Assembly: GCA_011191875.1 (NCBI GenBank)
Contig: DUFC01000033.1
Span: forward strand, 11,793-75,792
DNA: 64,000 nt
Source of the DNA: Dehalococcoidia bacterium
Lineage (GTDB): Bacteria; Chloroflexota; Dehalococcoidia; Dehalococcoidales; W498
Direction of reading: 5' to 3'
Part shown: piece by piece, positions 18,004 to 33,503 of the stretch
Numbering within the stretch: the first letter of the stretch is position 1
How the letters are laid out: each line of letters starts with the position of its first letter
Notes under the pieces: model-generated
What the model was told of the DNA's origin: nothing
What the model saw: the letters and a program-made list of their open reading frames with translations, nothing else
Databases searched by the model: none
Translations under genes and position numbers: made by a program

Positions 18004-18030
18004 GTTCAATTTTGTAACAGAGGTGAAAAA

Positions 18031-18975
18031 ATGAGAAGCAAACTGTGGAGATTGGGGACGCTTTATTTGGTTTTAGTTATGGTGGTGAGTCTTATTATGG
18101 CTTGCGCACCACCTGACGAAGATGAGGTACCATCTCCGATAGAAGTGACAGACCAACTGGGCAGGGTAGTTAAATTAGAGAAATTCCCGGAAAGAATTAT
18201 TTCTCTTGCCCCAGGCAATACTGAGATACTGTTTGCGTTAGGGTTGGGTGATAAAGTAGTAGGGGTGACTGACTTTTGTAATTACCCAACAGAGGCTCAA
18301 GAGAAGCTTAAAATAGGTGGTTTTAGTACGCCGAATATAGAAGAAGTGGTTGCCCTTTCTCCAGAACTGATATTAGCTACCGAACGACATGAAGCGAGCA
18401 TCATTCCAGCGCTTGAGGGAAAGGGACTGGCTGTTTTCGCTTTAGACCCCAAAACCCTTGATGAGATATTGGAAGCTGTCACCCTGGTTGGAGATATTAC
18501 TGGCAACGAAGAGGTGGCTTCCCAGTTGGTGACCGAGATGAGTAACCGAATTAAGGCGGTAACTGACAAGACAGACAATCTGCCCGAGGCTCAAAGACTA
18601 AGAGTTTTGTATATCTGCTGGCATGACCCCTTGAAGACAGCTGGGGGAGATACCCATCATGAGGAACTAATTGTAAAGGCAGGCGGAATAAATATTGCTC
18701 ACGACCTAACTGGTTTTCCGATGATTAATTTAGAGACAGTCATTGACGCTAATCCCCAGGTGATAATTACCGGTGCTGGTATGGGCACAGGTGAAAACAA
18801 GCCTCTTCAGCTTGCCCTGACCGAGCCGAGACTAGCGGATGTTGATGCCCGCATTAATAACCGGATATATGCGATATCTACTGACTTGTCTGGTCGTGCT
18901 GGACCTAGAATAGTTGATGGGCTGGAGAAGTTTGCTGAATCCATACACCCGGAACTATTCGTTTCAGTTGAATAG
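18031..18975 (+). CDS. ABC transporter periplasmic substrate-binding protein, cobalamin/siderophore (BtuF-like) family
   Basis: Signal/lipoprotein N-terminus (IMAC), PF01497-like sequence (RIISLAPGNTEILFALGL). Directly downstream of the B12 riboswitch. Confidence 0.85.
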   Translation: MRSKLWRLGTLYLVLVMVVSLIMACAPPDEDEVPSPIEVTDQLGRVVKLEKFPERIISLAPGNTEILFALGLGDKVVGVTDFCNYPTEAQEKLKIGGFSTPNIEEVVALSPELILATERHEASIIPALEGKGLAVFALDPKTLDEILEAVTLVGDITGNEEVASQLVTEMSNRIKAVTDKTDNLPEAQRLRVLYICWHDPLKTAGGDTHHEELIVKAGGINIAHDLTGFPMINLETVIDANPQVIITGAGMGTGENKPLQLALTEPRLADVDARINNRIYAISTDLSGRAGPRIVDGLEKFAESIHPELFVSVE

Positions 18976-19074
18976 ACAAACTTGATAGATAACACGGGTG
19001 CGCTATACTGCCACTGTATCTAGCAGGATGGTAATTGTAAAAATTAGAAATTTCCTGCTTGAGGGACTAAGGAG

Positions 19075-19173
19075 ATGGGGGAAGTGGCGGGTGTAGCTGG
19101 AAGACATTTTGCCAATGTCTCTTGCTTAAAGGGGAATGAAGACCTGAAATATGAGGTGTTAAGGAATTTCTGA
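19075..19173 (+). pseudogene. relic of the C-terminus of a radical SAM paralog
   Basis: The 32-codon ORF ...RHFANVSCLKGNEDLKYEVLRNF* aligns with the end of the 16913-17653 protein (...KRHLLNVSYLAGSAEVKFEVLRVF*). Both end in the same TGATTATG junction. Confidence 0.6.
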
Positions 19174-19175
19174 TT

Positions 19176-20267
19176 ATGGCTCTGGAACAACTTAAACCAT
19201 CTTCTACGGGGCAAGCTATACCAATCCATCTGCCTCACTGGCGTAGTCGTATATATGGTATTTTAGGACTTCTCATCTTGCTTACGGTGGTAGTGGGATT
19301 TGCCACCACTTTTGGTAGCGTTCAAATTCCTTTCTCAACCATATTCGGCACACTACTTTCGAAATTGCCCTTGGTTGACATAACTCCTGTCTGGCCGAGC
19401 ACTACAGAGACCATAATTCTGGACATACGCTTGCCAAGGGTGATTCTGGCAGGTCTTGTCGGGGCTGCCCTGGCTGTAGCGGGGGCTACGTATCAGGGGT
19501 TGTTTCGCAACCCATTAGCTGACCCTTACCTTATCGGCGTGGCTCAAGGAGCATCGCTAGGAGCAGTCATTGGCTTCTTACTCCCATTTAACTGGCAGGG
19601 AATGGGGTTTGGGCTTATTCCTCTACTCGCCTTCGTCGGAGCACTGTTGAGCGTAGCCATTGTTTATAATCTGGCTCGAGTAGGCAAAGCCCTGCCTGTG
19701 ACTACCCTTATCCTGGCCGGTGTGGCTTTGGGAGCCCTTTTAGGGTCAATTGTTTCTTACCTGATAATCACCAGTGGAGAAAAGATGCACGGAATTCTAT
19801 TTTGGCTTATGGGTAGTTTCTCCTTAAGCGAGTGGACGGAGGTAAAGGTTGTTCTTCCCTATATAGTGGTGGGGGTAGTCATCATTCTGCTTTACTCTCG
19901 CTCGCTTAATATAATGCAGCTTACCGAGGAGCAGGCTCAACAGCTAGGAATCAATGTAGAAAAGGTCAAGCTTATTCTTCTTGCTGCTGCTACCCTGATT
20001 ACTGCTGCCGCTGTTTCTTTCGTAGGCACTATCGGATTTGTTGGCATCATTATACCTCATGCCGTGCGCCTGGTTTGGGGAGCGGATTACCGTTTCCTAT
20101 TACCCTTGTCCATTCTCACCGGTGCCGTCTTTCTAATTCTCGCCGACCTTGTAGCTCGTACCGCTTTAGCGCCTACGGAGATACCGATAGGGGTAATAAC
20201 TGCCATCTGTGGAGCGCCCTTCTTCCTTTACTTATTGCGGCGCAAGAGAAAAGCAGTATTCTTTTAA
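19176..20267 (+). CDS. FecCD-family ABC permease (BtuC-like)
   Basis: Typical FecCD/BtuC sequence (LRLPRVILAGLVGAALAVAG, PIGVITAICGAPFFLYLL). Confidence 0.9.
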   Translation: MALEQLKPSSTGQAIPIHLPHWRSRIYGILGLLILLTVVVGFATTFGSVQIPFSTIFGTLLSKLPLVDITPVWPSTTETIILDIRLPRVILAGLVGAALAVAGATYQGLFRNPLADPYLIGVAQGASLGAVIGFLLPFNWQGMGFGLIPLLAFVGALLSVAIVYNLARVGKALPVTTLILAGVALGALLGSIVSYLIITSGEKMHGILFWLMGSFSLSEWTEVKVVLPYIVVGVVIILLYSRSLNIMQLTEEQAQQLGINVEKVKLILLAAATLITAAAVSFVGTIGFVGIIIPHAVRLVWGADYRFLLPLSILTGAVFLILADLVARTALAPTEIPIGVITAICGAPFFLYLLRRKRKAVFF

Positions 20268-20279
20268 GGATAGCCTAAA

Positions 20280-21107
20280 ATGATTAAACTAGAACTACAA
20301 AGTGTCGGAGTTGCCTACGGTCATAATCTGGTGGTGAAGGATGTGACCTTTCAGGTGATGCCTGGGGAGATGGTGGGACTTATTGGGCCGAACGGTTCTG
20401 GTAAGTCAACCATTATTAAGGCAATAAGCCGCGTTATATCACTCCACTCGGGGAAGATACTCTTAGATGGGAAAGATGTATTCAAGATGCCAAGGGGAGA
20501 TTTGGCTCGCTCGCTCGGCGTAGTTCCTCAGATGTCAATACTTCCCAGCGCCTTTACCGCCTTTGAGATAGTGCTCATGGGGAGGAATCCCCACCTTGGA
20601 CTTCTTCAGTATGAAAGTAAGAAAGACATGGCTATAACTTGGCAAGCTATGGAGAGGACAGCAACCCAGCCACTCGCTGAACGAATAGTGTGCGAGCTTT
20701 CAGGTGGGGAGATACAGCGTGTAGTCGTTGCTCGTGTCCTGGCTCAAGAGCCGAAGTCAATCCTTTTAGATGAGCCGACGGCGAATTTGGATATCAGGCA
20801 TCAGATTGAAATCCTTGACCTGATTAAGAGTCTGTGCCTGGAAAAGAATTTAATGGTTGTGATTGCTCTTCATGACCTAAACCTTGCCTCACAATATTGT
20901 GACCGGTTAATCCTGATAAATAACGGGACGGTTCATGCTCAGGGGACTCCAGAGGAGGTCATCAATTCTCAGAACATCAAGGAGGTCTATGGAGCTGATG
21001 GCTGCGTCTATGCCCATCCGGTTAATGGACTCCCTGCCGTCATACTCAAGGCAGGTAATAGCCGACATGCCAATTCCAGAGATACGATAGAAGGGGGTAT
21101 AATTTAA
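20280..21107 (+). CDS. ABC transporter ATP-binding protein (BtuD/FepC-like)
   Basis: Walker A GPNGSGKST, signature LSGGE, Walker B ILLDEP. Confidence 0.9.
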   Translation: MIKLELQSVGVAYGHNLVVKDVTFQVMPGEMVGLIGPNGSGKSTIIKAISRVISLHSGKILLDGKDVFKMPRGDLARSLGVVPQMSILPSAFTAFEIVLMGRNPHLGLLQYESKKDMAITWQAMERTATQPLAERIVCELSGGEIQRVVVARVLAQEPKSILLDEPTANLDIRHQIEILDLIKSLCLEKNLMVVIALHDLNLASQYCDRLILINNGTVHAQGTPEEVINSQNIKEVYGADGCVYAHPVNGLPAVILKAGNSRHANSRDTIEGGII

Positions 21108-21234
21108 CAGTTGTGGAGATTCCACTTCTATTGTCTCTAGCTCTAGTTATTAGTTTGGTTTGGGATGAACTGCCTGGCGATATTCACCCCAAACTCTTCT
21201 TATAGCCAGCTGGAATGCACAAAGGAGAACAATT

Positions 21235-21960
21235 ATGAAACATGCCGTTGTCAAGGAAGGAGAGCTCTTAGTATCTCTTGGTGGGGGCTATTTCGGGGTT
21301 AAAGCGGCAAGGCTTGGCAAGGAATGTAAAGCCAGGACAATGATACTAGATACAAATCCAGATTGCGCAGCTCGGGAAATAGTTGATGTTGTATTGACTG
21401 GGCAAGAAGCTATAGAAGCGGGACTAGTATCGCTCATCATTGGTGATGCAATGGAAATCTTGTTCAGCATCTTGGAAAGAGAGGTACCACAGTGGATTAT
21501 CCCTGCTGTCCCGGGGCATGCACTGGGTAAGGTAGTTAAAAGTTGGTTAACGATGAAGGGGCATAAAGTAGCTAGTGGCGGAGGTTTGATGAGAGAGGTC
21601 TTAGCCGATTTACCTAATAGATTGGTTCTGAGCGCCGATGAGGAGTCCGGTATTGTCATGTCGAGTTATATGCCCGAGGGGATGAGGTGCCAGGATAACT
21701 GTTCTCAGCTTGGAATATGCCCGGTGACCAAGCGAAAGAAGCCGGCTGCTATGTATGAACTTCTTGAATTTTCAGTCTTCGAGGCAGTTGATTACTTTAA
21801 GATTTTTGCAAGTCGTCAATTTGAAGGAGTGGGAGGAGTACCGGGTCCAGTGGTGAAAAAGACATTAGAGCATCTGGCGAGTCTCACACCACCCTATTCG
21901 TTAGCTATCGGCACTTCGTGTCGGTGCCATGGTATATTGAGTCTCTTTAAAGTGGAGTAG
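21235..21960 (+). CDS. hypothetical protein, Rossmann-like N-terminus plus Cys cluster
   Basis: 241 aa with a GGGYFG glycine loop, CQDNCSQLGIC (CX3CX5C) and a C-terminal CRCHG. SD AAGGAG. Sits between btuD-like and cbiZ. Confidence 0.6.
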   Translation: MKHAVVKEGELLVSLGGGYFGVKAARLGKECKARTMILDTNPDCAAREIVDVVLTGQEAIEAGLVSLIIGDAMEILFSILEREVPQWIIPAVPGHALGKVVKSWLTMKGHKVASGGGLMREVLADLPNRLVLSADEESGIVMSSYMPEGMRCQDNCSQLGICPVTKRKKPAAMYELLEFSVFEAVDYFKIFASRQFEGVGGVPGPVVKKTLEHLASLTPPYSLAIGTSCRCHGILSLFKVE

Positions 21961-21970
21961 GAGCTTATCT

Positions 21971-22738
21971 ATGAAAATGACCAAGGGTGTAACAAGACAA
22001 CTGCTGGGAGAATTCCATGGGATTAGGGGAGAAATCGTTAGTCATCAGGTTTGGGGAATCCCAGCCAATGCTCTGGCTTTGTATCTACCGGAAGCCCGGA
22101 ACGCCTTAAGCGGGCGACAGGGGTTCAAAGAGATAGAGGCGGTTTGTAACTGTCATCTCCCCAAGCCTCTTTGTCAGTCACTGCACGAACGATATCGTGA
22201 CTGGGAAACATATTTTGGAGAACTCCTGACAGAAGTTCTTATTGAACTTAACCTATCCCCGGATAGGGTGGCCGTTTTATCCACTGGGGTAAATATGGAG
22301 CATCTAGCCTGGGCGGAGGAGGTTTATAAAGAGCTTTGGGCGCTGGCTTTCGTTACTGCTGGGATTAAAACAAACGCTATGAGGATAGGGAAAGACAGGG
22401 CAAGTACCATTGAGCGGAATGGACAATTTGAAGAGGCAGGAACCATAAACATAATCGTACTTACCAATGCCTCATTTGACCAAGCTGCCTTAGCCTCTTC
22501 ATTCATCACTATAACTGAAGCTAAAATTATTGCCTTGCAGGAGTTGAATGTAAGAAGCTCTTATAATCCCGACTGGCAGGCAACAGGCACCGGTACTGAC
22601 CAGATTATAGTGGTGTCAGGGAGGGATACCAAACAGACCTATGTTGGTGGACATACTAAAATAGGTGAACTAACGGCACGTGCAGTTACCCGAGCCACCA
22701 TTGATGCCATCAATAAGAGGCTCAACGTTTCTGATTAA
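21971..22738 (+). CDS. cbiZ: adenosylcobinamide amidohydrolase
   Basis: CbiZ-like sequence (GTINIIVLTN...ITITEAKIIALQE...ATGTGTDQIIV). Located in the cobamide operon. Confidence 0.8.
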   Translation: MKMTKGVTRQLLGEFHGIRGEIVSHQVWGIPANALALYLPEARNALSGRQGFKEIEAVCNCHLPKPLCQSLHERYRDWETYFGELLTEVLIELNLSPDRVAVLSTGVNMEHLAWAEEVYKELWALAFVTAGIKTNAMRIGKDRASTIERNGQFEEAGTINIIVLTNASFDQAALASSFITITEAKIIALQELNVRSSYNPDWQATGTGTDQIIVVSGRDTKQTYVGGHTKIGELTARAVTRATIDAINKRLNVSD

Positions 22739-22806
22739 GATTATTAAAGATGGATTTCTAAACGATAGGTAGTTAATATTGTATATAGTTTGGAGTTTAA
22801 GAAGGC

Positions 22807-23775
22807 GTGGATATATTATTAATACTGTTCCTGGCACTGGCTATTGATTTAGCTTTGGGTGAACCACCTCCTATCATACACCCCGTGGTATGGATGGGAA
22901 AGGTCATTTCATTCCTGGAAAGGGTTAATATTGGTCGTTCCCCATTCGTTCAGTTTCTCTATGGGTTCGTGATAACCGTGGCCATTATGGGGTTGTTTAC
23001 CGCCCCTGTTTATTTCATGCTCTTTTATCTAAAGAGCCTTAGCCTTAGCTTTGACTGGGCGTATGTAATTGCAGGAGCTGTGCTCCTCAAATGCACCTTT
23101 TCCCTGAGAGAACTGCGGCAGGTAGCCATCAGGGTCAAGAGACTTCTCCTGAAGGAGAAACTGGATGATGCCCGCTTTGAGCTGTGCTTATTGGTCAGTC
23201 GTGATACCCAGAATTTACCCAAGCCACTGTTAGTATCGGCTACCGTAGAATCAGTGGCAGAGAGCACCTGCGATAGCTTTATTGCACCCATCTTCTATTT
23301 TCTGCTCCCTTTGCTCTTTGGTGTTCCAGGGTTCTTTGGCGTTATAGGAGCTGTTGCCTATCGGGTAGTCAATACCCTAGATGCTATGGTAGGCTATCAT
23401 GGGAAATATGAGTATTTGGGGAAGTTTGCCAGCAAGTTGGATGATGTGCTTAACTTTATACCAGCTAGACTAACGGCGCTACTCTTGGCTTTAGCTACTT
23501 TTTTATCGAGAAAGGGTACTCGAACCTCGTGGCAGGTTGTACTCGGTGAGCATTCTAAAACTGAGAGCCCCAACGCTGGTTGGCCTATAGCGGCCATGGC
23601 AGGTGGGCTCGATGTACAGTTAGAGAAGGTGGGGTATTATAAATTAGGTAAGGCAAACGCCCAGCTAGTGCCAGAAACCATTGATGCTGCGTTGAAGCTG
23701 GTGCAGGTAGCGGTGTTGTCCTGGGTCTTGATATGTTTCATAGCGGGGGTAATTCGCTTTGCCGTTACGACCTAA
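22807..23775 (+). CDS. cbiB: adenosylcobinamide-phosphate synthase (CobD/CbiB family)
   Basis: Membrane protein with HPVVWMG and SPNAGWP motifs typical of CbiB. GTG start. Confidence 0.9.
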   Translation: MDILLILFLALAIDLALGEPPPIIHPVVWMGKVISFLERVNIGRSPFVQFLYGFVITVAIMGLFTAPVYFMLFYLKSLSLSFDWAYVIAGAVLLKCTFSLRELRQVAIRVKRLLLKEKLDDARFELCLLVSRDTQNLPKPLLVSATVESVAESTCDSFIAPIFYFLLPLLFGVPGFFGVIGAVAYRVVNTLDAMVGYHGKYEYLGKFASKLDDVLNFIPARLTALLLALATFLSRKGTRTSWQVVLGEHSKTESPNAGWPIAAMAGGLDVQLEKVGYYKLGKANAQLVPETIDAALKLVQVAVLSWVLICFIAGVIRFAVTT

Positions 23776-24868
23776 ACCTGAGATAGAAAAGCTGGAAGCC
23801 TGTCCTCATGGTGGACCAAACTGGGCTGAGTTATCGGCTATGGGTCTTATTCCTGAGGAAGTTATTGACTTTAGTGTCAGCACCAACCCATTTATGCCCC
23901 CGCCGGCAGTAAAGGAAATCTTTAATACTATCGACATTGACCACTACCCTGATTCAGAGGCAACCGAACTTAGGCAGTGTCTTTCGGAAAAACTGGGGGT
24001 GGCATCGGGTAACATTCTGGCGGGAAGTGGTGCCATGGAGCTTATTCGCCTTATCGCTTTGACTTACTTCGGGCACGGAGATTCCGTCCTGATTCTGGAG
24101 CCAACCTTTGGTGAATACAAAGTCGCTTGCCGAATAATGGGTTCGGAGGTTTTTGAGCAATGGGGGAAGGCAGAGGAGAACTTTGCCCCGAGAATAGAAG
24201 AGACAGTCGGCCTTATCAGGCAACGCCGCCCTAAGGGGGTTTTTATCTGCAATCCTGGCAATCCTACTGGGCAATACCTCTCCAGAAAGGAGGTTGAGGC
24301 AATATTAGATGCCTGTGTTGATTGCCTGCTCGTTCTGGATGAGGCATACATTGCCTTCACTGAGGGAAGCTGGTCTTCTACTGACCTAGTTTCCCGGAAC
24401 AATGTGATTATTATGCGTTCTATGACTAAGGACTATGCTTTAGCTGGACTGCGTTTAGGCTATGCTATCGCCAATGAGGAGATTATCCAGAATCTAAGTA
24501 AGGTCTGTCCTCCGTGGAATGTCAATGTAGTGGCTCAAAAGGCAGGGGTTATCGCGCTAAAGGATACAGAATATCTCAAGCGGTGTGAGACAAAGATTAG
24601 ACAGGTAAAATATTTTATGATAGATGAGCTTGGCCGAAGCGGCTTCAAATTAGTGCCATCAAAGACGAATTTTTTCTTGGTAAAGGTGGGCGATGGTAAA
24701 AGCTTCCGAAATGCTTTGTTACGGTATGGCATCATGGTTCGCGACTGTGCTTCCTTTGGATTGACGGAGTATGTCCGTATTGCGCCCCGCACCATGCCGG
24801 AGTGCCAAAAGCTCATCACTACCATCAAGGCGCTAAAGCGTGAGGGGGAACTAAATGTCAGTATCTAA
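23759..24868 (+). CDS. cobD: threonine-phosphate decarboxylase (class II aminotransferase fold)
   Basis: HGG...DFSVSTNP N-terminus and PLP-lysine region SMTKDYALAGLRLGY. Overlaps the cbiB stop; start approximate. Confidence 0.85.
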   Translation: MPLRPKPEIEKLEACPHGGPNWAELSAMGLIPEEVIDFSVSTNPFMPPPAVKEIFNTIDIDHYPDSEATELRQCLSEKLGVASGNILAGSGAMELIRLIALTYFGHGDSVLILEPTFGEYKVACRIMGSEVFEQWGKAEENFAPRIEETVGLIRQRRPKGVFICNPGNPTGQYLSRKEVEAILDACVDCLLVLDEAYIAFTEGSWSSTDLVSRNNVIIMRSMTKDYALAGLRLGYAIANEEIIQNLSKVCPPWNVNVVAQKAGVIALKDTEYLKRCETKIRQVKYFMIDELGRSGFKLVPSKTNFFLVKVGDGKSFRNALLRYGIMVRDCASFGLTEYVRIAPRTMPECQKLITTIKALKREGELNVSI

Positions 24869-25832
24869 TACTTTGGAGTCTGCTTTCAATTATACAACCG
24901 TTGTCCAAGCCCTTGAAGAAAGTGTGAGGCGTAATCTAACCGATGGGCTTCTCTTATCAGGTGGGCTGGACACAGCTATGCTTGCCTACCTAACTTCAAA
25001 GTGGGTCAAACCAGGCTGTATTACAGTAGCCCTGCGCGATGCCCCGGCACCGGATGTTGACTACGCCAAGCTAGTAGCCAGCCGTTTGGAACTGAAGCAT
25101 CATGTCCACTATTTTGGAAATGAGGAACTGGACGAGAATATTCAAGATGTAATTAGGATTCTGAAATCCTTCGACCCTATGGAAATTCGTAATAGTGTAG
25201 CTATCTATATTGCGCTGAAGGTAGGGAGAGACCAGGGTATATCGACTTTTATGACGGGGGACGGGTGCGACGAACTTTTCGGTGGTTATAGCTTCCTCTT
25301 CGGACTGACCGAAGAGCAACTGGACAAGGCACTGAATAAAATATGGAGCAATATGAGGTTTTCTTCAATACCCTTAGCTAAGGCTCTGGGGGTGGAAGTT
25401 AGACTTCCATACTTAGACCCACAGTTCAGAGCTTTCGCTACAGGGTTAGATACAGGTCTGAAGATTAGAAGTGAAAAGGGAGAGGTGTGGGGCAAGTGGA
25501 TTCTGCGCAAGGCTTTTGAGAATATTATGCCACAGGAAATAGTATGGAGGGTTAAAGCCCCAATAGAGGTAGGAAGCGGCACCACTATACTCCCGTCCCT
25601 TTTCGATTCAAGAATCTCAGACCTTGAATTCAACGAAAAGAAGATAAGATACCTCAATGAAGATAGAGTTGTCATTAGAAGTAAGGAGCATCTTTTCTAC
25701 TACGAGATTTACCGAAGTGTGATTGGCGTTCCTTATAGGGATGCCAGTAACGCCAAGAACTGCCCGGATTGTGGTTCAAATGTTGAAGAGGGAGCCTCGT
25801 TTTGTAAGACATGTGGTGCTTACCCTGTATAG
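24855..25832 (+). CDS. asparagine synthetase-like PP-loop ATP pyrophosphatase lacking the glutaminase domain, with C-terminal zinc ribbon
   Basis: SGGLDT PP-loop, MTGDGCDELFGGY, no N-terminal Ntn-glutaminase domain, C-terminal CPDCG...CKTCG. ATG overlaps the cobD 3' end behind GAGGGGG. Confidence 0.8.
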   Translation: MSVSNTLESAFNYTTVVQALEESVRRNLTDGLLLSGGLDTAMLAYLTSKWVKPGCITVALRDAPAPDVDYAKLVASRLELKHHVHYFGNEELDENIQDVIRILKSFDPMEIRNSVAIYIALKVGRDQGISTFMTGDGCDELFGGYSFLFGLTEEQLDKALNKIWSNMRFSSIPLAKALGVEVRLPYLDPQFRAFATGLDTGLKIRSEKGEVWGKWILRKAFENIMPQEIVWRVKAPIEVGSGTTILPSLFDSRISDLEFNEKKIRYLNEDRVVIRSKEHLFYYEIYRSVIGVPYRDASNAKNCPDCGSNVEEGASFCKTCGAYPV

Positions 25833-25938
25833 AGCCTCACCAGGGGGTTCTCGCTTTATGATAGGAGACAGTGATGAGGTTAGAGTAGGTCTTTCTGGAA
25901 GGGCTAAGGTTGACAAATAACTGATACAGGAGGTAGAA

Positions 25939-27000
25939 GTGACGGAAGTCTTATCCAATATAATTGAAATGATAAAGCCTCTAGATGAAGGGGCAATGGC
26001 TCAAGCTCGAGCACGGCAGGACATGTTGACCAAGCCACAGGGTGCCCTGGGTAGGCTGGAGGAACTGTCCATTCAACTGGCTGGCATTCAGGGTAAGCCC
26101 ATACCTCAAATCAACCACAAAGCTATTATCACTATGGCTGGCGACCACGGGGTGGTAGCGGAAAAGGTAGGTAACTGGCCTCAGGAGGTTACCACTCAGA
26201 TGGTTTATAATTTCCTCGGTGGTGGGGCAGGAATAAATGTGATTGCTCGCCAGGCAGGAATTAGAATTATTGTGGTTGATATGGGGGTGGCATCTGAGAT
26301 AGAAACTAACCCTCAGCTTTTATCCAGGAAGGTTGCTCCTGGTACCCAAAATATGTGTTTAGGTCCAGCTATGACCGATGAGCAGGCGATGAGGGCAGTA
26401 GAGACAGGGATTGAAATAGTGAGGGATGAGGTGGCTAAGGGTCTGGATATAGTGGGCACTGGTGATATGGGCATCGGTAATACTAGTGCCAGTAGCGCTA
26501 TCTGTGCCGTTATCACTGGAAGACCGGTAGCTGAAGTAACAGGTAGAGGTACTGGTATAACTGATGAGCAGTTGGCGCATAAAGTGGAAGTAATAACTAA
26601 AGTCCTGACAGTGAACCACCCTGACCCGGCTCAGCCTTTGGATGTACTGGCAAAGGTGGGTGGCTTTGAGATTGGTGGGCTGGTTGGGGTGATGTTAGCA
26701 GCCGCCGCTCACCGCATTCCGGTAGTTGTTGATGGTTTTATCTCTGGGGCGGCAGCTCTCATTGCCACGGCATTGGCACCGGGGTTGAAGGACTTCATTA
26801 TATCGGCTCATGTTTCGGCTGAGGCTGGTCACAAATCATTACTCAACTATCTGGGGCTTACACCCTTACTGGATTTGGGCATGCGTCTGGGTGAGGGCAC
26901 CGGTGCTGCCTTGGCAATATTTTTAGCTGAGACTTCAGCCAGGATTTTGGCTGAGATGGCTACCTTTGCCGAGGCTGAGGTGTCAGAAAAGGAAGAGTAA
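25939..27000 (+). CDS. cobT: nicotinate-nucleotide--dimethylbenzimidazole phosphoribosyltransferase
   Basis: Typical CobT sequence (MAGDHGV, GDMGIGNTS, LGEGTGA). GTG start behind AGGAGG. Confidence 0.95.
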   Translation: MTEVLSNIIEMIKPLDEGAMAQARARQDMLTKPQGALGRLEELSIQLAGIQGKPIPQINHKAIITMAGDHGVVAEKVGNWPQEVTTQMVYNFLGGGAGINVIARQAGIRIIVVDMGVASEIETNPQLLSRKVAPGTQNMCLGPAMTDEQAMRAVETGIEIVRDEVAKGLDIVGTGDMGIGNTSASSAICAVITGRPVAEVTGRGTGITDEQLAHKVEVITKVLTVNHPDPAQPLDVLAKVGGFEIGGLVGVMLAAAAHRIPVVVDGFISGAAALIATALAPGLKDFIISAHVSAEAGHKSLLNYLGLTPLLDLGMRLGEGTGAALAIFLAETSARILAEMATFAEAEVSEKEE

Positions 27001-27005
27001 TAAAA

Positions 27006-27770
27006 TTGGCGTTACTGGTAGCGATAAGGTTTCTAACCACTATTCGATTACCCTGGAGGCGTGAAGCTAGCCATGAGGAATTTGTACGTTCCGTGGGTTA
27101 TTACCCTGTGGTCGGTTTCCTTATTGGTCTAATTCTATATGGGCTCTGGTGGCTTCTTAGTCCTTTTTTACCTCCGTCTATTGTTAATATATTATTGATT
27201 ATTGCCTTAGTGGTGATTAGTGGCGCATTGCACCTTGACGGCTTTGTTGATACCTGTGATGGGATAGGTGGGCACAAGACTCCTGAAGAAAGATGGCGAG
27301 TATTGCATGACAGTCGGGTCGGTGGTTTTGGTGTTATTGGTGCTTGTTGCCTACTGCTGGTTAAATTTATCACACTGAATAGTGTGCCTGAGCCTTTACT
27401 GATGATGACCCTGATATTAATGCCAGTGGTAAGTCGTTGGGCAATGGTCTATGCTATTTTTATCTATCCCTATGCCCAGCCATCAGGTTTAGGGAAGGAG
27501 CGTAAGCAGGCTACTGATTTACCAAGGTTCATCGAGGCAACAATAATAGCTTTGGCGGTAGCTGTAGTCTTAGCTTGGCCAGCTTGGCTAGCAGGCTTGG
27601 CGATAATGGCAGGCATCTGGGTTGTAGTGATGGTGATGGGAGCCTATTTTAAGGGTAAGTTTGCTGGTCTTACTGGTGATACCTATGGGGCTATAAATGA
27701 GGTAGCTGAGGTTTGTGTGCTCATCCTTATTTGTTTGCTGGCTCACAACCAGTGGTTGGGATTGACCTAG
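27006..27770 (+). CDS. cobS: adenosylcobinamide-GDP ribazoletransferase (cobalamin synthase)
   Basis: Polytopic membrane protein with HLDGFVDTCDG motif. TTG start. Confidence 0.9.
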   Translation: MALLVAIRFLTTIRLPWRREASHEEFVRSVGYYPVVGFLIGLILYGLWWLLSPFLPPSIVNILLIIALVVISGALHLDGFVDTCDGIGGHKTPEERWRVLHDSRVGGFGVIGACCLLLVKFITLNSVPEPLLMMTLILMPVVSRWAMVYAIFIYPYAQPSGLGKERKQATDLPRFIEATIIALAVAVVLAWPAWLAGLAIMAGIWVVVMVMGAYFKGKFAGLTGDTYGAINEVAEVCVLILICLLAHNQWLGLT

Positions 27771-27783
27771 TTCGGAGATATAA

Positions 27784-28389
27784 TTGTCTAGATTATTTCT
27801 GGTGAGACATGGCGAGACTGAATCAGGCAGTACTCTAAGGTACTGGGGACAGAGTGATGTTAAGCTAAGTACCCTTGGACTCAGCCAGGCTGAGAGATTA
27901 TGCAACCGGCTGGTAACAGAGAAGTTTGATGCAATTTATACCAGTAACCTTAGGCGGGCTTCAGTAACCGCCGAGATTATTGCTGCCAGGCATCAGTTGG
28001 ATATTGTCAACTGTGCCGAGTTGAACGAGGTTAACTTTGGTAAGGTTGAGGGACTGACATTTGACGAGGTTAGTCGGTTTTATCCTGAAGTTGCTAAAAC
28101 GTGGGTTAGCCGGAGCCTCAGTCTTGAGTTTCCCGATGGTGAAAATTTTGAAATGTTTAATAGCCGGGTAAGCAAATTCCTGAGCAGACTGGACAAGCAT
28201 ACCCCGGAGGAAACGATACTTATTGTGGCTCATGCTGGACCGTTACGGTTACTGGTATGCTATCTTCTAGGCTTAGACTTACGACACTGGCGGCAGTTTC
28301 GCCTTGATTTGGCTTCGCTTAGTATAATTGAGACCTATTCCCAGCAGGCAATTCTGAGCCAGTTAAATGATGTTTCCCATCTGGAATAA
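27784..28389 (+). CDS. cobC: alpha-ribazole phosphatase (histidine phosphatase family)
   Basis: LVRHGET catalytic motif and a second His region (VAHAGP). TTG start. Confidence 0.85.
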   Translation: MSRLFLVRHGETESGSTLRYWGQSDVKLSTLGLSQAERLCNRLVTEKFDAIYTSNLRRASVTAEIIAARHQLDIVNCAELNEVNFGKVEGLTFDEVSRFYPEVAKTWVSRSLSLEFPDGENFEMFNSRVSKFLSRLDKHTPEETILIVAHAGPLRLLVCYLLGLDLRHWRQFRLDLASLSIIETYSQQAILSQLNDVSHLE

Positions 28390-28401
28390 TAGGAGGTTAA
28401 T

Positions 28402-29079
28402 ATAAACCGGGTTTTCGCTTCGTGGAGTGGGGGGAAGGACTGCTGCCTTGCCTGTTACCGGGCGGTAGTTAACGGTCTAAAAGTTGGTTATCTAGCTAAT
28501 ATGGTAACTGAAGACGGCAAACGCTCGCGTAGTCATGGACTGTTGGCTGAGGTATTACAGGTGCAGTCGCAGGCTATTGGAATTCCTCTAGTTCAGCGGC
28601 GGACTACCAGGGGCAACTACGAAGCTGAATTTAAAAATATGCTCCGCACTTTCAAGCAGGAGGGGATTGGGGGCGGTGTGTTTGGTGATATTGACTTTAA
28701 TGAACACCGGGTTTGGATTGACAGGGTGTGTCAGGAAGTTAGTATTACTCCCCATTTGCCCTTGTGGGGGGAGAGCCATGATAGAATAATGAGAGAGTTT
28801 ATAAATTTGGGGTTTGAGGCAATTGTAGTTGCGACCAAGACTAACCTGCTTGGAGAGGAATGGTTAGGGCGGAGGATAGACCTGGATTTCCTTGGGCGGA
28901 TGGAAGAACTAAGTGAGACAAGGAACATTACACCCTGTGGTGAAGCCGGGGAATATCATAGCCTGGTTATTAATGGACCTCTGTTTAGGCAGCGGTTAGA
29001 AATTCTGGAAACAAGTAAAGTCTTAAGAGATGAACACTGGTTTTTAGAGGTTTTGAAGTATGATTTGAGAACTAAGTGA
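28402..29079 (+). CDS. Dph6/MJ0570-like PP-loop ATP pyrophosphatase (diphthine-ammonia-ligase family), paralog 1
   Basis: The frame is open from 28393 and encodes NRVFASWSGGKDCC (PP-loop) upstream of the track ATG 28501. No canonical start exists there. ATA 28402 lies 5 nt after AGGAGG. C-terminal GEAGEYHS motif. Confidence 0.7.
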   Translation: MNRVFASWSGGKDCCLACYRAVVNGLKVGYLANMVTEDGKRSRSHGLLAEVLQVQSQAIGIPLVQRRTTRGNYEAEFKNMLRTFKQEGIGGGVFGDIDFNEHRVWIDRVCQEVSITPHLPLWGESHDRIMREFINLGFEAIVVATKTNLLGEEWLGRRIDLDFLGRMEELSETRNITPCGEAGEYHSLVINGPLFRQRLEILETSKVLRDEHWFLEVLKYDLRTK

Positions 29080-29118
29080 TACTCAGTTTCTCATTTAGCA
29101 TAGAAAGGTAATACTTTA

Positions 29119-29805
29119 GTGAATAATATGTCTCAAGTCTTTGTCCCGTGGAGTGGTGGGAAAGATGGCTGCTTTGCCTGCTATCTAGCGGCTAGTAGTG
29201 GTTTAAAAGTTCGTTACTTAGCAAATATGCTAAATGAGGATGGTAAGCGGTCATGGAGTCATGGACTATCGGCTGAGGTATTGCAGTTGCAGGCACAGGC
29301 TATTGGAATTCCACTAGTTCAGCGACGAGTCACTGATCGCAACTATGATGCTGATTATAAAAATATGCTCCTTTCCTTCAAGCAGGAGGGGATTGAGGGT
29401 GCGGTCTTTGGTGATATTGCCTTTGTTGGGCACCAGCAGTGGATTGAGAAAGCGTGTCAGAAAGTGAATCTCACTCCCTATTTCCCCTTGTCGGGACAGG
29501 CTCAAGAGAAAGTGTTAAGAGACTTCATAGACTTAGGGTTTGAGGCAACTATAGTTGTGACTGAGGCTGACCTAATTGACGAGAAATGGCTAGGGAGGAA
29601 AGTAGACCTGGATTTCTTAACATATTTATCTGAATTAAAGCAGACAAATGATATTCACATATGTGGTGAAGCTGGAGAGTATCATACCTTTGTTACTGAC
29701 GGTCCTTTGTTTAAGCAGCGGATAGATATTCTGGAAACCAATAAGGTTCTGAGGAAGAGACACTGGTATTTAGAAATATTGAAATGTAACTTGGAGGCAA
29801 AGTGA
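29119..29805 (+). CDS. Dph6/MJ0570-like PP-loop ATP pyrophosphatase, paralog 2
   Basis: VFVPWSGGKDGC PP-loop and GEAGEYHT motif. Roughly 60% identical by eye to paralog 1. An alternative start at ATG 29128 gives the same length as paralog 1. Confidence 0.8.
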   Translation: MNNMSQVFVPWSGGKDGCFACYLAASSGLKVRYLANMLNEDGKRSWSHGLSAEVLQLQAQAIGIPLVQRRVTDRNYDADYKNMLLSFKQEGIEGAVFGDIAFVGHQQWIEKACQKVNLTPYFPLSGQAQEKVLRDFIDLGFEATIVVTEADLIDEKWLGRKVDLDFLTYLSELKQTNDIHICGEAGEYHTFVTDGPLFKQRIDILETNKVLRKRHWYLEILKCNLEAK

Positions 29806-30377
29806 GTAAAAAGTGCATCTTATTAATTGGTGGTACCCGTAGCGGTAAAAGTAGCTTTGCTCAAGAGCTTGCTCTAAAGTTAGACAAGCCAGTGCTTTTT
29901 GTGGCTACAGCCGAGGCTAGTGATGAAGAGATGAGGCACCGCATTGAAGAGCACCAAAAGGTAAGACCATCAACCTGGAGCACCCTTGAGGTTACCACCC
30001 ATATAGGTAGTCAGATTGAGCAAGAAATTGGTGGGGCTCAGGTGGTAATTATAGATTGTATCACCCTACTGGTTAATAATGTCTTTGGTAAATATAGCCA
30101 CCAGGCTGGCGAGCAAGTTGATGCCTCTCTTATAGAGGAAAAGCTTACCAGTGAGATTAGCGAGTTGGTAGAGTGCATTGACCACACTCATGCCAGCTTC
30201 ATTATTGTTACTAATGAGGTTGGTATGGGTTTGGTGCCGACTAATAGGGTGGGCAGGTTGTATCGTGATTTGCTGGGGAAGGCGAACCAGAGACTAGCTG
30301 AGCGTGCCGATGAAATTTATCTGATGGTTGCCGGTCTACTAGTGCCAGTAAAACCAGCCAAGGATTTTTCAATATAA
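29802..30377 (+). CDS. cobU: bifunctional adenosylcobinamide kinase / adenosylcobinamide-phosphate guanylyltransferase
   Basis: P-loop GGTRSGKS, CobU/CobP-like body. GTG overlaps the upstream stop. Confidence 0.9.
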   Translation: MSKKCILLIGGTRSGKSSFAQELALKLDKPVLFVATAEASDEEMRHRIEEHQKVRPSTWSTLEVTTHIGSQIEQEIGGAQVVIIDCITLLVNNVFGKYSHQAGEQVDASLIEEKLTSEISELVECIDHTHASFIIVTNEVGMGLVPTNRVGRLYRDLLGKANQRLAERADEIYLMVAGLLVPVKPAKDFSI

Positions 30378-30387
30378 GCCTTCCTAG

Positions 30388-31152
30388 CTATAGTTTTGGT
30401 CTCCGACGCAATGTTTCCTCTAGATTTAGTGGCACAACCTCTGGTCTTGGCGCTTGATAGACATTTACCACTTCCAGTCCAGTAAACTCCGTTTCTATAG
30501 CTGCCATCTCATCTGGTGCTAACGGTTTGATAGGGCAGGGGCGTAGTGGGGTATTGAGTTGCACTTCATCAGGTAAAAGTCGCCTGGCTATGTCTGCCAT
30601 TTGTCTGGCGTAATCCTTATTTATAGCCATGAACATCATTTGTAGAGCTAGCTTTTTTTTAAATCTTTTTCTGAAGTGTTCTATGGAGTGGAGTAATTGG
30701 TCAAGGGAATAGCTGACTACAGGGTTATTAATCTGCCGGAACGTTTGTTCAGTAGCCGCATCTATTTTGGCTATTACCACATCTGCCTGTGCCAAGTCAT
30801 CGCACACATCCTCCCTGGGCATAAGGGAAGAATTGGTCAGGACTGCCACTGGCAGTGGTAGAATTGACTTGGCTATTTTGATGGCTTCTCCCAGATTGCT
30901 TGCCAGAGTTGGTTCCGCCATACCGGAGAAGGTAACATAATCAGCCACTGTATCTCTTACTGCATCCAGCTCTTTAGCTAGCTGGGTAATTGTAACAAAT
31001 TCTCGCCGTTCCACCCGAGGATTTATTGTTCTACCCAGTTGACAGTAGATGCAGTCAAAGGAGCAGGTCTTACCCTTAGTAGAGACTAAATCCACACCCA
31101 AAGACTTACCTAACCGCCACGAAGGAACAGGACCATAGATTATAGATTTCAC
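30388..31152 (-). CDS. radical SAM protein (function unknown), last gene of the minus-strand operon
   Basis: IYGPVPSWRLGKSLGV N-terminus and CSFDCIYCQ (CX3CX2C). Confidence 0.8.
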   Translation of the reverse strand: MKSIIYGPVPSWRLGKSLGVDLVSTKGKTCSFDCIYCQLGRTINPRVERREFVTITQLAKELDAVRDTVADYVTFSGMAEPTLASNLGEAIKIAKSILPLPVAVLTNSSLMPREDVCDDLAQADVVIAKIDAATEQTFRQINNPVVSYSLDQLLHSIEHFRKRFKKKLALQMMFMAINKDYARQMADIARRLLPDEVQLNTPLRPCPIKPLAPDEMAAIETEFTGLEVVNVYQAPRPEVVPLNLEETLRRRPKL

Positions 31153-31168
31153 TTTCTATGCCCTTGGG

Positions 31169-31621
31169 TCAGTATTTGCGATAAGCTCTTTTCCACGGCT
31201 CCTTCTTCAGGTCTAGGTAATCCTTAATTGCTTGCTTAAGAGTATTAACTGCTAGCAGTGCACAGTGAATACTTTCCTCAGGGAGACTGCCTAAGGCATT
31301 CAAAACATGTTGTTTGTTAATCTTCATAGCTTCAGGAATACTCTTTCCCCTAGCTATCTCGGTGACCGTGCTACCTGTGGCAATGGTGGCTCCACAGCCA
31401 TCGGTCAGAAAGGTAGCATTGGTAATTATGCCCCTTTTCACCTTGAGCCATATCTCCATAGTATCCCCGCAGGGACCGGTCACCTCGCCAAAACCATCAG
31501 CATCTTGCATGTTCCCTACATTCCTTGGGTTCACCACATGGTCAATTGTCGTCTCGGTATAGACCCCCTTCATGCTTTCCCTGATAAGTTGTTCAAGCGG
31601 CTCGAATTCTGAAGTCATCAC
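31169..31621 (-). CDS. IscU/NifU N-terminal-type Fe-S cluster scaffold protein
   Basis: GPCGDTM, DGCGATIA and HCALLA motifs supply the three conserved Cys of an IscU-type scaffold. Confidence 0.85.
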   Translation of the reverse strand: MMTSEFEPLEQLIRESMKGVYTETTIDHVVNPRNVGNMQDADGFGEVTGPCGDTMEIWLKVKRGIITNATFLTDGCGATIATGSTVTEIARGKSIPEAMKINKQHVLNALGSLPEESIHCALLAVNTLKQAIKDYLDLKKEPWKRAYRKY

Positions 31622-32646
31622 TCTAACTCCTGTTGAAGGTCTCTTTGTTTTATCTTGGGCAATGCCTGTACAAAGGCTTGACTAAGAGCGGCAAAGTCGT
31701 CAGAGTTGTAGTTTTCTATAGTGCCTTCATCACATAACCTGGCTAGCTTTGGGTCTATGGGCAGCTGTCCCAGAAAAGGTGCACTAGCTACCCGTGCCAT
31801 CTCCTCTCCTTTACTCTCGCCAAAGAGTTCAATTCGCTTATCTATTTCGGGTATATATAGGTAGCTCATATTTTCAACTACACCCAGGATAGTTTTATCC
31901 ATCTTCTGTACCATATTCACTGCTTTTCTAACCACCATGGCTGTCAAATCTTGTGGGGTAAAAACGATGACTACGCCGGATATGGGAAGTGTTTGCAGCA
32001 CAGTAAGCGGCACATCAGCAGTGCCCGGTGGTAAGTCTATTATTAGGTAATCGAGTTTACCCCAGACTACATCTTCCCAGAATTGCGTAATAGCCTTGGA
32101 GATAAGAGGACCACGCCAGATAACAGCCTCACTCTCCATAGGCAAGAGCAGGTTGATGGATATAACCTCAACTCCCGACCTTGACAACACTGGCAGGATT
32201 CCAGTATCACTGCCACCAAGGTGGGTGGTGATACCAAACATTTTGGGGATGCTGGGGCCAGTAATATCAGCGTCTAGAATACCTACCTCGTTTCCCTGGC
32301 GGCTGAGGGCAATAGCTATAAGGCTGGCTACTAGGGATTTACCCACTCCCCCTTTACCGCTCATTACGGCGATGGTATGGCTAATCCGGTTTAGCATTGT
32401 GGGCTTGTACAATATGAATTCTACCTCTACTTTGTTTACCTCAGGCAGTTTCTCCATAACTGCTTTTGTCTTAGTTCTAATCCAGTCTTGTGAACCTGGG
32501 CTCAAAGCAGTGGCGGCAAGGGTAACCTTGACTATATTATTTATAATCTCAATCTCCCGCACCATATTTAGCTGGGTTATACTACGCCCAACTCCAGGAA
32601 CGAGCACCCCACTGAACGCCTGTTCAACCTGTTCTTTTGTAGTCAT
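31618..32646 (-). CDS. Mrp/NBP35/ApbC-family Fe-S cluster carrier ATPase with N-terminal DUF59 domain
   Basis: Deviant Walker A SGKGGVGKS, DUF59-like N-terminus. 4-nt overlap with the iscU-like start. Confidence 0.9.
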   Translation of the reverse strand: MTTKEQVEQAFSGVLVPGVGRSITQLNMVREIEIINNIVKVTLAATALSPGSQDWIRTKTKAVMEKLPEVNKVEVEFILYKPTMLNRISHTIAVMSGKGGVGKSLVASLIAIALSRQGNEVGILDADITGPSIPKMFGITTHLGGSDTGILPVLSRSGVEVISINLLLPMESEAVIWRGPLISKAITQFWEDVVWGKLDYLIIDLPPGTADVPLTVLQTLPISGVVIVFTPQDLTAMVVRKAVNMVQKMDKTILGVVENMSYLYIPEIDKRIELFGESKGEEMARVASAPFLGQLPIDPKLARLCDEGTIENYNSDDFAALSQAFVQALPKIKQRDLQQELE

Positions 32647-32672
32647 TAACTGTCACTTCCTTTCTATCACTT

Positions 32673-33503
32673 TTATATTGACCAACCTAACCAGCCAAAG
32701 ACGCCAAGCATCTTTAGACCCATGTAGAACATTACGGCGATGAATATATATCTTAGTTGCTTGGCTGGTAGCTTATGTGCAGTTATCGCCCCAACCTGTG
32801 CCATACCAACACTGGTAACCGCCAGTAGAAACCATGATGTCAAGTTAACAAAGCCGATAGTATAATCCAAATTTGCCAATTCAGGAACACCCAGACCATT
32901 TGTAATATAACCGATAACACCACCGATGCTGGTAAATATCATTATAGCTAAGGATGTAGCCACAGCATTGTGCATTTTAAACTTGAGTGCCAGCACTAAT
33001 ATAGGAACCATCAACACGCCGCCACCAATTCCAATGGTACCAGTTATAATGCCGATAAGGATAGACCAGGCAACCCATAGCCAGGGATTATCCTTGGGCT
33101 CCTGCTCAACCTTTGGTGTTCTGGCAGTGAGCATCCATATACCACCGGCAAGAATTACCGCTCCAAAAGCAATCTTTAGTCCTGCCCCGGGGAGGTGGGT
33201 AGCCAGGGTGGCTCCACCAAAGGCACAAATTAGACCACAGCTACCCATAGTAATGGCTGGTTTCCACCACACTGCCCCCTTTTTACTATGTCTCCAGGCA
33301 CCGCTTATAGCTGTAGGTAAAACAACCAGCAAATTTGTTCCAAATGCCAGTTTTATGGCTATGTCTGCTGGAATGCCTATGTTAGTGAATATCATGTACT
33401 GGATGGGGGTCATAATGAAGCATCCGCCAACACCCAGAAGACCACCGGCAAAGCCAACACCTACACCAGTTGCCAAAAGGATAGCAGCATGAGCTACTGT
33501 CAT
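32673..33503 (-). CDS. TauE/SafE-family anion exporter-like membrane protein
   Basis: Eight hydrophobic helices with duplicated GxGGG motifs (GLLGVGGCF, IGIGGGVLMVP). Confidence 0.8.
   Translation of the reverse strand: MTVAHAAILLATGVGVGFAGGLLGVGGCFIMTPIQYMIFTNIGIPADIAIKLAFGTNLLVVLPTAISGAWRHSKKGAVWWKPAITMGSCGLICAFGGATLATHLPGAGLKIAFGAVILAGGIWMLTARTPKVEQEPKDNPWLWVAWSILIGIITGTIGIGGGVLMVPILVLALKFKMHNAVATSLAIMIFTSIGGVIGYITNGLGVPELANLDYTIGFVNLTSWFLLAVTSVGMAQVGAITAHKLPAKQLRYIFIAVMFYMGLKMLGVFGWLGWSI

Follow-up and report, generated by a model that had tools for sequence, protein, structure and literature searches.

Why should an operon for cobamide salvage carry three genes that resemble those for asparagine synthetase B (AsnB) and the diphthamide enzyme Dph6? 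The question is raised by a stretch of 64,000 nucleotides (nt) from a Dehalococcoidia bacterium (GenBank assembly GCA_011191875.1, contig DUFC01000033.1, positions 11,793 to 75,792 of the forward strand), the whole of the DNA analysed and called the window here; coordinates count from its first letter unless another locus is named. A riboswitch-led plus-strand operon at 18031-30377 reads btuF-btuC-btuD-unknown-cbiZ-cbiB-cobD-(AsnB-like)-cobT-cobS-cobC-(DUF71)-(DUF71)-cobU, and the genes in brackets encode intact PP-loop (ATP-pyrophosphatase) enzymes of two families:

24855-25832, plus strand: AsnB-like PP-loop gene; PF00733 (Asn_synthase), 5.5e-39, plus Zn_ribbon; 14-nt overlap with cobD
28402-29079, plus strand: DUF71-B12-type gene, copy 1; PF01902 (Diphthami_syn_2), 3.4e-57; ATA at the start position
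29119-29805, plus strand: DUF71-B12-type gene, copy 2; PF01902, 2.4e-50; 4-nt overlap with cobU

We found the two families to be conserved accessories of riboswitch-run clusters for cobamide uptake and salvage in anaerobic bacteria and some archaea, usually as an adjacent pair. A preliminary description of this DNA had named the families from motifs; in Pfam searches the AsnB-like protein matched PF00733 and both tandem paralogues PF01902, as it had anticipated.

AsnB-like loci were collected with one genome per species, and the resulting 80 loci were annotated with the proteins of the window operon (loci are cited by L numbers). Bacterial loci numbered 17, from Syntrophaceae, Desulfobacterales, other Deltaproteobacteria, Omnitrophota, Clostridia, Nitrospirota and Dehalococcoidia; btu or cob genes were present in 15 of them, across six or more phyla, and DUF71 lay immediately downstream of the AsnB-like gene in 11. 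Three archaeal loci held the same pair (L016, Thermoproteota; L057, Thermoplasmata; L066, Bathyarchaeia), and btuF adjoined the AsnB-like gene in L006 and L073. Two gene orders recurred, riboswitch - TonB-dependent receptor - AsnB-like - DUF71 - btuFCD and cbiB - cobD - AsnB-like - DUF71. Within Dehalococcoidia, the order cobD - AsnB-like - cobT was shared by L001, L085, L096 and L119, and cobC - DUF71 - cobU by L002, L085 and many of L087-L112. A cobalamin riboswitch lay upstream of the pair on the same strand in six of the eight clusters tested, as it does in the window, so the B12-riboswitch regulons to which the preliminary description had pointed do hold these families elsewhere. That description had also allowed for an association unique to this genome; synteny is instead kept across phyla. 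A neighbour-joining tree, a rough guide that carries no support values, set a Nitrososphaeria clade apart from a mixed clade with pervasive B12 context and contained two Dehalococcoidia lineages of the AsnB-like protein, both beside cob genes.

A reciprocal scan, in which metagenome contigs were searched with alignment A3, made from DUF71 proteins linked to such clusters, gave 80 DUF71 loci. The neighbours there included CobU (30), CobS (24), CobC (22), BtuD (21) and BtuF (20), and roughly 55 of the 80 loci had btu or cob neighbours. The AsnB-like gene was found in 15, immediately upstream of DUF71 in 10, with a radical S-adenosylmethionine (SAM) gene between the two in 2 and in the window's arrangement in 2 others. 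DUF71-B12, the B12-linked subgroup of DUF71, is therefore the wider-spread partner and the AsnB-like protein a frequent companion. CbiZ was encoded in 1 of the 80 loci.

Members of both families were also found fused to other domains. Two AsnB-like proteins (P0244, P0295) carry a CobY-like, MobA-like N-terminal NTP-transferase domain, for which the best named NCBIfam matches were TIGR00454 and methanogen-type CobY, ahead of MobA, all below cutoff. Two more (P0327, P0365) are fused to an MMACHC/CblC domain, and one (P0372) to a BtuF-like domain. A single open reading frame (ORF) joins DUF71 to a BtuF-like domain in an Omnitrophota locus (L040:4962-6398), and another joins a BtuF-like domain to CbiZ in a deltaproteobacterial one (L044:5214-7277); in these two fusions the periplasmic-binding-protein fold seems to be the corrinoid-binding domain of a cytoplasmic-type enzyme. 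Because every fusion partner binds or processes corrinoids, the fusions are the strongest in-silico indication that the AsnB-like and DUF71 proteins handle corrinoid. Together with synteny and the riboswitch units, they place the three enzymes in cobamide salvage and not in asparagine, diphthamide or tRNA metabolism, in line with the preliminary description.

How much of the machinery of their namesakes do the three proteins keep? The AsnB-like protein (325 amino acids, aa) aligned to E. coli AsnB (1ct9) over residues 211-509 only (E=2e-24) and had no GATase match in Pfam, which agrees with the earlier reading that it lacks an N-terminal glutaminase domain; the PP-loop and zinc ribbon reported at the same time are likewise in its translation (LLLSGGLDTAM and CPDC...CKTCG). 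The AlphaFold2 model had a predicted local distance difference test score (pLDDT) of 95.6 and a template modelling (TM) score of 0.73 to 1ct9, consistent with a shared synthetase fold. A search of a 50%-identity cluster library gave 208 family representatives at E<=1e-30, most of them about 320 aa long, with coverage that reached the very end of the query. Among 52 representatives aligned with one another (alignment A1; 28-54% identity to the window protein), the PP-loop S35-G-G-L-D-T40 and K234 (E. coli K449) were invariant or nearly so, and the ribbon cysteines C303/C306/C317/C320, E140, Y145, K214 and R218 were invariant. The window protein fits all the marks of this AsnB-like/zinc-ribbon family, namely a length of about 320 aa, no glutaminase, a C-terminal C-x2-C...C-x2-C-G, TGDGxDELFxGY and M-x-F-S-S.

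Besides the fold, the likeness to AsnB (EC 6.3.5.4) takes in the SGGxD PP-loop, equivalents of residues K449, K429 and R433, and an acidic cluster, D136/D139/E140, which corresponds to E. coli E348/D351/E352 with E348 replaced by Asp. In asparagine synthetase this cluster (human E364/D367/E368, with D400/R403 also in the aspartate pocket) holds the amino group of the substrate (PMC6748925). The window protein differs from AsnB in having no glutaminase domain, an invariant C-terminal four-cysteine ribbon and Asp in place of E348, and its family has no conserved Asp or Arg at the positions of D384/R387, where it reads M-x-F-S-S. Its scores reach about one third of the NCBIfam equivalog cutoff for NF006949 (164.5 vs 499 bits) and about half of that for TIGR01536 (125 vs 267). 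Beta-lactam synthetase, carbapenam synthetase, the lasso-peptide cyclases and TsnB9 have the same synthetase domain and use non-aspartate substrates or non-ammonia nucleophiles, and 1mc1, 1q19 and 7ylz were among the structural matches of the model. Unlike the window protein, that group retains an N-terminal domain (often inactive), lacks the C-terminal zinc ribbon and has no corrinoid link.

The two DUF71 copies are 61% identical to each other and bear the SGGKD and GEAGEYH motifs by which they had been recognised (SWSGGKDC and PWSGGKDG; CGEAGEYH in both). They matched the Dph6 structures 3rjz (PF0828) and 2d13 at E ~1e-33 (copy 2 against 3rjz, E=2e-33), and they share with Dph6 (MJ0570/PF0828) the fold family, the SGGKD PP-loop and, presumably, adenylation followed by amidation. 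They differ in that GEGGEFETFV of PF0828 aligns to GEAGEYHTFV, which puts His at the position of catalytic E188, a replacement seen in all 13 cluster-linked DUF71 proteins; they also score 142.3 and 146.9 bits against a cutoff of 197.3 for TIGR03679 (Dph6), and their host is a bacterium, bacteria being without diphthamide (PMC3541065). Invariant in A3 were the SGGK[DE] PP-loop, H48, GD, H105, W108, C113 and GE.GEYH, and the second position of E-x-G-E-Y-H varied (A, K, N, E, R, L) among members in B12 clusters.

A 2012 study had split DUF71/COG2102 into Dph6 and DUF71-B12 (de Crécy-Lagard et al., Biol Direct 7:32, PMC3541065), and the link of the latter to B12 salvage is therefore a published prediction; the statement in the preliminary description that no such function had been described does not hold for PF01902. 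DUF71-B12 was defined by ENGE[FY]H instead of EGG[ED]xE and by clustering with btuCDF (75/102) and cbiB (18/102). Genomes with CbiB were reported to carry either CbiZ or DUF71-B12, with strict anticorrelation of the two in bacteria, and a CbiZ-like role was cautiously proposed; Dehalococcoides CBDB1 was credited with five DUF71 genes, and in a few archaea full-length AsnB was noted to be joined to DUF71, a fusion that was read as an ammonia supply for Dph6 (all PMC3541065). The window copies share with this subgroup the PP-loop, E-x-G-E-[FY]-H in place of EGG[ED]xE, and the btuFCD/cbiB cluster. They differ in having Ala where the published motif has Asn, in occurring as two tandem copies (two copies were found in just 1 of the 80 reciprocal-scan loci), in pairing with an AsnB-like gene, which is absent from the 2012 account, and in sharing their operon with cbiZ, contrary to the reported anticorrelation. 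cbiZ and DUF71 also share a cluster in L085, L016, L044, L059 and L165, often side by side. The full combination of cbiZ, AsnB-like gene and two DUF71 genes is unusual, being common to the window and L085, and the other four loci resemble it.

Purifying selection acts on all three PP-loop genes. With L085, a 95%-identical relative of the window, as reference, the ratio of nonsynonymous to synonymous changes (pN/pS) was 0.18-0.25 for these genes vs 0.14-0.37 for the neighbouring cob genes. Copy 1 of DUF71 has no ATG, GTG or TTG between the upstream stop and its PP-loop; behind AGGAGG stands the codon ATA (28402-28404), at the position where L085 has ATG with an identical AGGAGG upstream and the L002 orthologue has GTG. 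The ATA reflects either a mutation of the start codon, with lowered expression, or an error of sequencing or base calling. We rejected pseudogenisation of copy 1, since its ORF is intact, its pN/pS is 0.25 and the start codon alone is affected. The best homologues of the window PP-loop genes come from metagenome-assembled genomes (MAGs) of Chloroflexota.

The operon proteins were identified by Pfam and NCBIfam scans of ORFs and the riboswitch by Rfam. The other features of the operon and its upstream region are as follows:

16886-17653, plus strand: small radical SAM gene (255 aa); Pfam Radical_SAM and Fer4_12
17732-17760, plus strand: promoter-like site TTGACT-17-TATACT; consensus match only
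17790-17934, plus strand: Cobalamin riboswitch aptamer; Rfam RF00174, 35.2 bits, only slightly above the gathering score of 31.5
17979-18006, plus strand: terminator-like hairpin and T-run 5' of the btuF start; candidate riboswitch expression platform
18031-18975, plus strand: btuF-like periplasmic corrinoid-binding protein; Peripla_BP_2, 1.8e-31
19176-20267, plus strand: btuC-like permease; FecCD, 9e-97
20280-21107, plus strand: btuD-like ATPase; ABC_tran
21235-21960, plus strand: 241-aa protein of the AF_1314_C family; PF27252 on record for homologues
21971-22738, plus strand: cbiZ (adenosylcobinamide amidohydrolase family); PF01955, 7.5e-49
22807-23775, plus strand: cbiB (cobinamide-phosphate synthase family); PF03186 (CobD_Cbib), 2e-83
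23759-24868, plus strand: cobD-like pyridoxal-phosphate enzyme (threonine-phosphate decarboxylase type); Aminotran_1_2; best NCBIfam match TIGR01140, 262.5 bits, cutoff 290.6
25939-27000, plus strand: cobT; DBI_PRT, 1e-137
27006-27770, plus strand: cobS; PF02654
27784-28389, plus strand: cobC (alpha-ribazole phosphatase); His_Phos_1; TIGR03162, 165.9 bits, cutoff 162.9
29802-30377, plus strand: cobU; PF02283, 3.7e-57

The hairpin and T-run at 17979-18006 probably form the riboswitch expression platform. Gene order, strand and coordinates are as first described, and so are the tight junctions, with an overlap or a spacer of at most 13 nt at 8 of 13; wider gaps separate btuF from btuC (200 nt), btuD from the 241-aa gene (127), cbiZ from cbiB (68), the AsnB-like gene from cobT (106) and the two DUF71 copies from each other (39). 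The small ORFs in the window's intergenic gaps held nothing conserved. The absence of cbiA and cbiP, also noted before, was borne out among 10 of the larger ORFs (365 aa or longer) that the 64-kilobase window holds beyond the operon, all of which were housekeeping genes.

The Dehalococcoidia operon is constant in outline, and its accessory genes (cbiZ, AF_1314_C, AsnB-like, DUF71, cobC, radical SAM) are variously present or absent at fixed spots. Upstream, a DsbD_TM and thioredoxin/redoxin pair flanks these salvage operons (window 15189-16789; L001, L002, L086), as does a PD-(D/E)XK gene in relatives. Convergent with cobU on the minus strand (30388-33503) lie genes for a radical SAM protein (254 aa), NifU_N, an Mrp/NUBPL-type iron-sulphur (Fe-S) carrier ATPase and TauE, a conserved block that L085 shares; TauE genes also stand after cobU in L086 and before the AsnB-like gene in L009, a Bathyarchaeia locus.

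Further families recur in these clusters. The radical SAM gene at 16886-17653 lies outside the riboswitch unit, a short way 5' of the promoter-like site, and gave only weak, activase-like NCBIfam matches. It has homologues in L169 (65% identity; btuF-rSAM-btuF-AF_1314_C-btuCD, with rSAM for radical SAM), L135 (46%; btuF-rSAM-btuC) and L147 (45%; AsnB-like-rSAM-DUF71), and the family also occurs in L122, L059 and L153/L154; the gene is probably associated with the salvage cluster. The 241-aa protein had no match in the copies of Pfam and NCBIfam scanned. A 100%-identical copy is annotated from a Dehalococcoidia MAG, and its family, PF27252 (AF_1314_C), has 79 homologues in Dehalococcoidia and archaea. 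A member in L167 stands in the order btuF-AF_1314_C-DUF71-btuCD-cbiB-cobD-cobA-cobT-cobS; no such arrangement recurs in L168. Residues C152, C156, C162, C229, C231 and H232 are invariant; the model has a pLDDT of 92, and PDB fold matches were limited to its Rossmann-like N-terminal part. AF_1314_C is probably a further component of corrinoid salvage, and perhaps a metal- or Fe-S-binding protein. L086 has a different radical SAM/SPASM gene (6986-8047), flanked by btuF and btuC in a Chloroflexota-type order btuF-rSAM-btuCD-AsnB-like-cobT-cobS-cobU, and its best, weak NCBIfam matches were AhbD, NirJ and AhbC.

Which reaction, then, might the PP-loop enzymes catalyse? AsnB, Dph6, NadE and QueC adenylate a carboxylate and then amidate it, and corrinoids bear seven side-chain carboxyl functions. 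We tentatively favour an ammonia-dependent amidation of corrinoid side-chain carboxylates, a proposal that leads the field while falling somewhat short of an even chance. The AsnB-like and DUF71 proteins would each bind imported corrinoid and adenylate a side-chain carboxylate to an acyl-adenylate (acyl-AMP) and pyrophosphate, and the acyl-AMP would then be converted to the carboxamide with free ammonia, the donor suggested by the lack of a glutaminase domain or partner. Corrinoids that are deamidated or incompletely amidated could in this way be raised to the cobyric-acid, cobinamide or cobamide level usable by CbiB, CobU, CobS and CobC, by a route of amidation or repair independent of CbiA/CbiP; the side chain served would differ between the families and between the DUF71 copies. 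We rank amidation first because it is a forward use of known family chemistry, because no glutaminase is present, because it would explain why CbiB salvagers have either CbiZ or DUF71, both delivering substrates at the cobyric-acid level, and because it fits the co-occurrence with CbiZ. Enzymes of the AhbD/NirJ type act on acetate and propionate side chains of tetrapyrroles, and by that analogy the L086 radical SAM protein may lend the proposal weak support.

If the proposal is right, the net conversion of carboxylate to carboxamide with ATP would be that of CbiA/CobB and CbiP/CobQ. Those enzymes combine a MinD/dethiobiotin-synthetase-like ATPase with a Triad glutaminase in an unrelated fold, phosphorylate the carboxylate (yielding ADP and phosphate) and use glutamine, whereas the window enzymes are of the AMP-forming PP-loop type and have no glutaminase. 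None of the three matched the Pfam CbiA-type ATPase or GATase_3, and they are analogues of CbiA/CbiP at most.

Several observations weigh against corrinoid amidation. Nitrososphaeria supply most of the archaeal AsnB-like matches, yet show no B12 context: among 106 neighbour proteins scanned by alignment we found HTH_3, DUF6659, Dus, aldo-keto reductase and the like and no B12 signal, a result that neither backs nor refutes a corrinoid role, and in L005 (a Nitrososphaeria MAG, 7030-10921), which holds the closest non-Chloroflexota relative (58% identity), the AsnB-like gene directly follows gatA-gatB, the genes of a tRNA-dependent amidotransferase. Of the DUF71 loci with GE.GEYH, roughly one in four has no btu or cob neighbour, in some cases with full 8-kilobase flanks. 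By analogy with asparagine synthetase, the retained acidic cluster may point to an amine-bearing substrate and not to a bare side-chain carboxylate. In three loci the precursor CbpA of a ribosomally synthesised and post-translationally modified peptide (RiPP) and its maturase CbpB adjoin or separate the AsnB-like/DUF71 pair. Lastly, Nitrososphaeria/Thaumarchaeota are reported to have cbiA and cbiP (PMC4303638). We rejected the AsnB-like protein as a replacement for CbiA/CbiP in Thaumarchaeota, where these two genes serve as markers (PMC4303638).

An alternative, though an unlikely one, is that one or both enzymes perform a linker step, in which the f-propionate of (adenosyl)cobyric acid would be adenylated and coupled to aminopropanol(-phosphate) or another amine, beside or upstream of the membrane protein CbiB. 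Gene order speaks for it, with cobD and/or cbiB immediately preceding the AsnB-like gene in the window, L001, L038, L059, L072, L083, L124, L136 and L137, adjoining it in L113, L149 and L165, and DUF71-B12 beside cbiB in the published cases given above; the CobY-like fusion, too, ties the AsnB-like protein to the enzyme that acts on what CbiB makes. The acidic residues D136/D139/E140 could accommodate a protonated amine, and the replacement of ammonia by an organic amine has precedent in beta-lactam synthetase and the lasso cyclases. CbiB is, however, genetically sufficient in Salmonella and Halobacterium, both of which are without either family; the operons at issue carry cbiB as well, and clusters such as L043, L084 and L086 have the enzymes with neither cbiB nor cobD nearby.

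Rather improbable, in our view, is the CbiZ-like role proposed in 2012, by which DUF71-B12, perhaps with the AsnB-like protein, would yield adenosylcobyric acid from cobinamide or pseudo-B12, by the net reaction of CbiZ or by another route. CbiZ occupies the same neighbourhoods as DUF71 and has the same type of BtuF-like fusion (BtuF::CbiZ in L044, DUF71::BtuF in L040). It was rare in the reciprocal scan, operons of the L002 type hold cbiB and DUF71 without cbiZ, and the published distribution of CbiZ or DUF71-B12 among genomes with CbiB, anticorrelated in bacteria (PMC3541065), speaks for such a role. But the window and the five loci listed above combine cbiZ with DUF71 in a single operon, and the two are therefore not simply redundant. 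CbiZ, moreover, belongs to an unrelated family and works without ATP; hydrolysis of an amide reverses the direction of every known PP-loop reaction, and ATP is not required for it.

We regard as no more probable than this a peptide or protein substrate, whether a CbpA-type peptide or a corrinoid-handling protein that is amidated or isopeptide-linked, or a peptide amine that is coupled to a corrinoid carboxylate. The loci at issue are those with the CbpA/CbpB system:

L059:1274-2855, L122:5279-6883 and L040:2349-3949: CbpA/CbpB system, adjoining or separating the AsnB-like gene and DUF71

L059 and L122 read AsnB-like-CbpA-CbpB-DUF71, and L040 reads CbpA-CbpB-AsnB-like-DUF71::BtuF. CbpA is a conserved basic peptide of 34-35 aa (…VIA.RKKC…GTGL[AS]HYILLDK[KR]; TIGR04164, 46-54 bits, cutoff 35), and CbpB is a SPASM radical SAM maturase (TIGR04163, 686 bits, above cutoff). 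Dph6 modifies a protein side chain, AsnB-like enzymes cyclise or amidate peptides, and zinc ribbons at a C-terminus typically serve to bind macromolecules. Outside these three loci, however, a six-frame regular-expression search found no CbpA-like peptide in the window or in any other of the ~170 loci; most AsnB-like/DUF71 pairs are separated by 10-130 nt only, and the fusion partners bind or process corrinoids, none being a RiPP recognition element.

It is very improbable that the enzymes merely sit in the operon and serve a housekeeping role unrelated to corrinoids (ammonia-dependent asparagine synthesis, or modification of tRNA or a translation factor), for although the Nitrososphaeria homologues near Dus and gatA-gatB and the retained acidic cluster and catalytic lysine of AsnB would suit such a role, it is opposed by the cross-phylum placement, the riboswitch control, the CobY-, CblC- and BtuF-like fusions, the wide shortfall from every NCBIfam equivalog cutoff for AsnB and Dph6, the lack of conservation at D384/R387, the His at Dph6 E188 and the absence of diphthamide from bacteria.

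Beyond the favoured amidation of side chains, a broader statement is possible but doubtful: that the AsnB-like/zinc-ribbon and DUF71-B12 proteins are the core of an AMP-forming, ammonia-dependent corrinoid-processing module of anaerobes, which amidates or otherwise derivatises the side-chain carboxylates of scavenged corrinoids by way of acyl-adenylates. It would open a second way to the corrin carboxamides, one that does without CbiA/CbiP, and would upgrade or repair corrinoids from the environment. AF_1314_C, the small radical SAM protein, the AhbD/NirJ-like radical SAM protein and CbpA/CbpB would be optional partners of such a module.

The link between DUF71-B12 and B12 salvage is already known from the 2012 prediction; new are the AsnB-like/zinc-ribbon family as a component of B12 salvage, the fact that it pairs with DUF71-B12, the domain fusions and the further families that recur. 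In the literature covered, which is incomplete and leaves most subscription journals outside, we found no experimental follow-up of DUF71-B12 and no paper tying an AsnB-like enzyme to B12 salvage, to pairing with DUF71-B12 or to the fusions. The AsnB-like partner, the fusions and the co-occurrence with CbiZ turn DUF71-B12 into a two-enzyme problem, and they argue against the simple idea of a CbiZ substitute.

In anoxic sediments, in aquifers, in guts and in dechlorinating consortia, which microbes can grow is governed by the salvage and remodelling of cobamides. The salvage toolkit known so far consists of BtuBFCD, CbiZ, CbiR, CbiB, CobU/Y, CobT, CobS and CobC. Two widespread families under B12 riboswitches have no assigned reaction, and current models therefore lack at least one chemical step in the recycling of corrinoids. 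If that step is amidation, incompletely amidated and deamidated corrinoids in the environment would become vitamin sources, and what is predicted from genomes about B12 auxotrophy and salvage would need revision.

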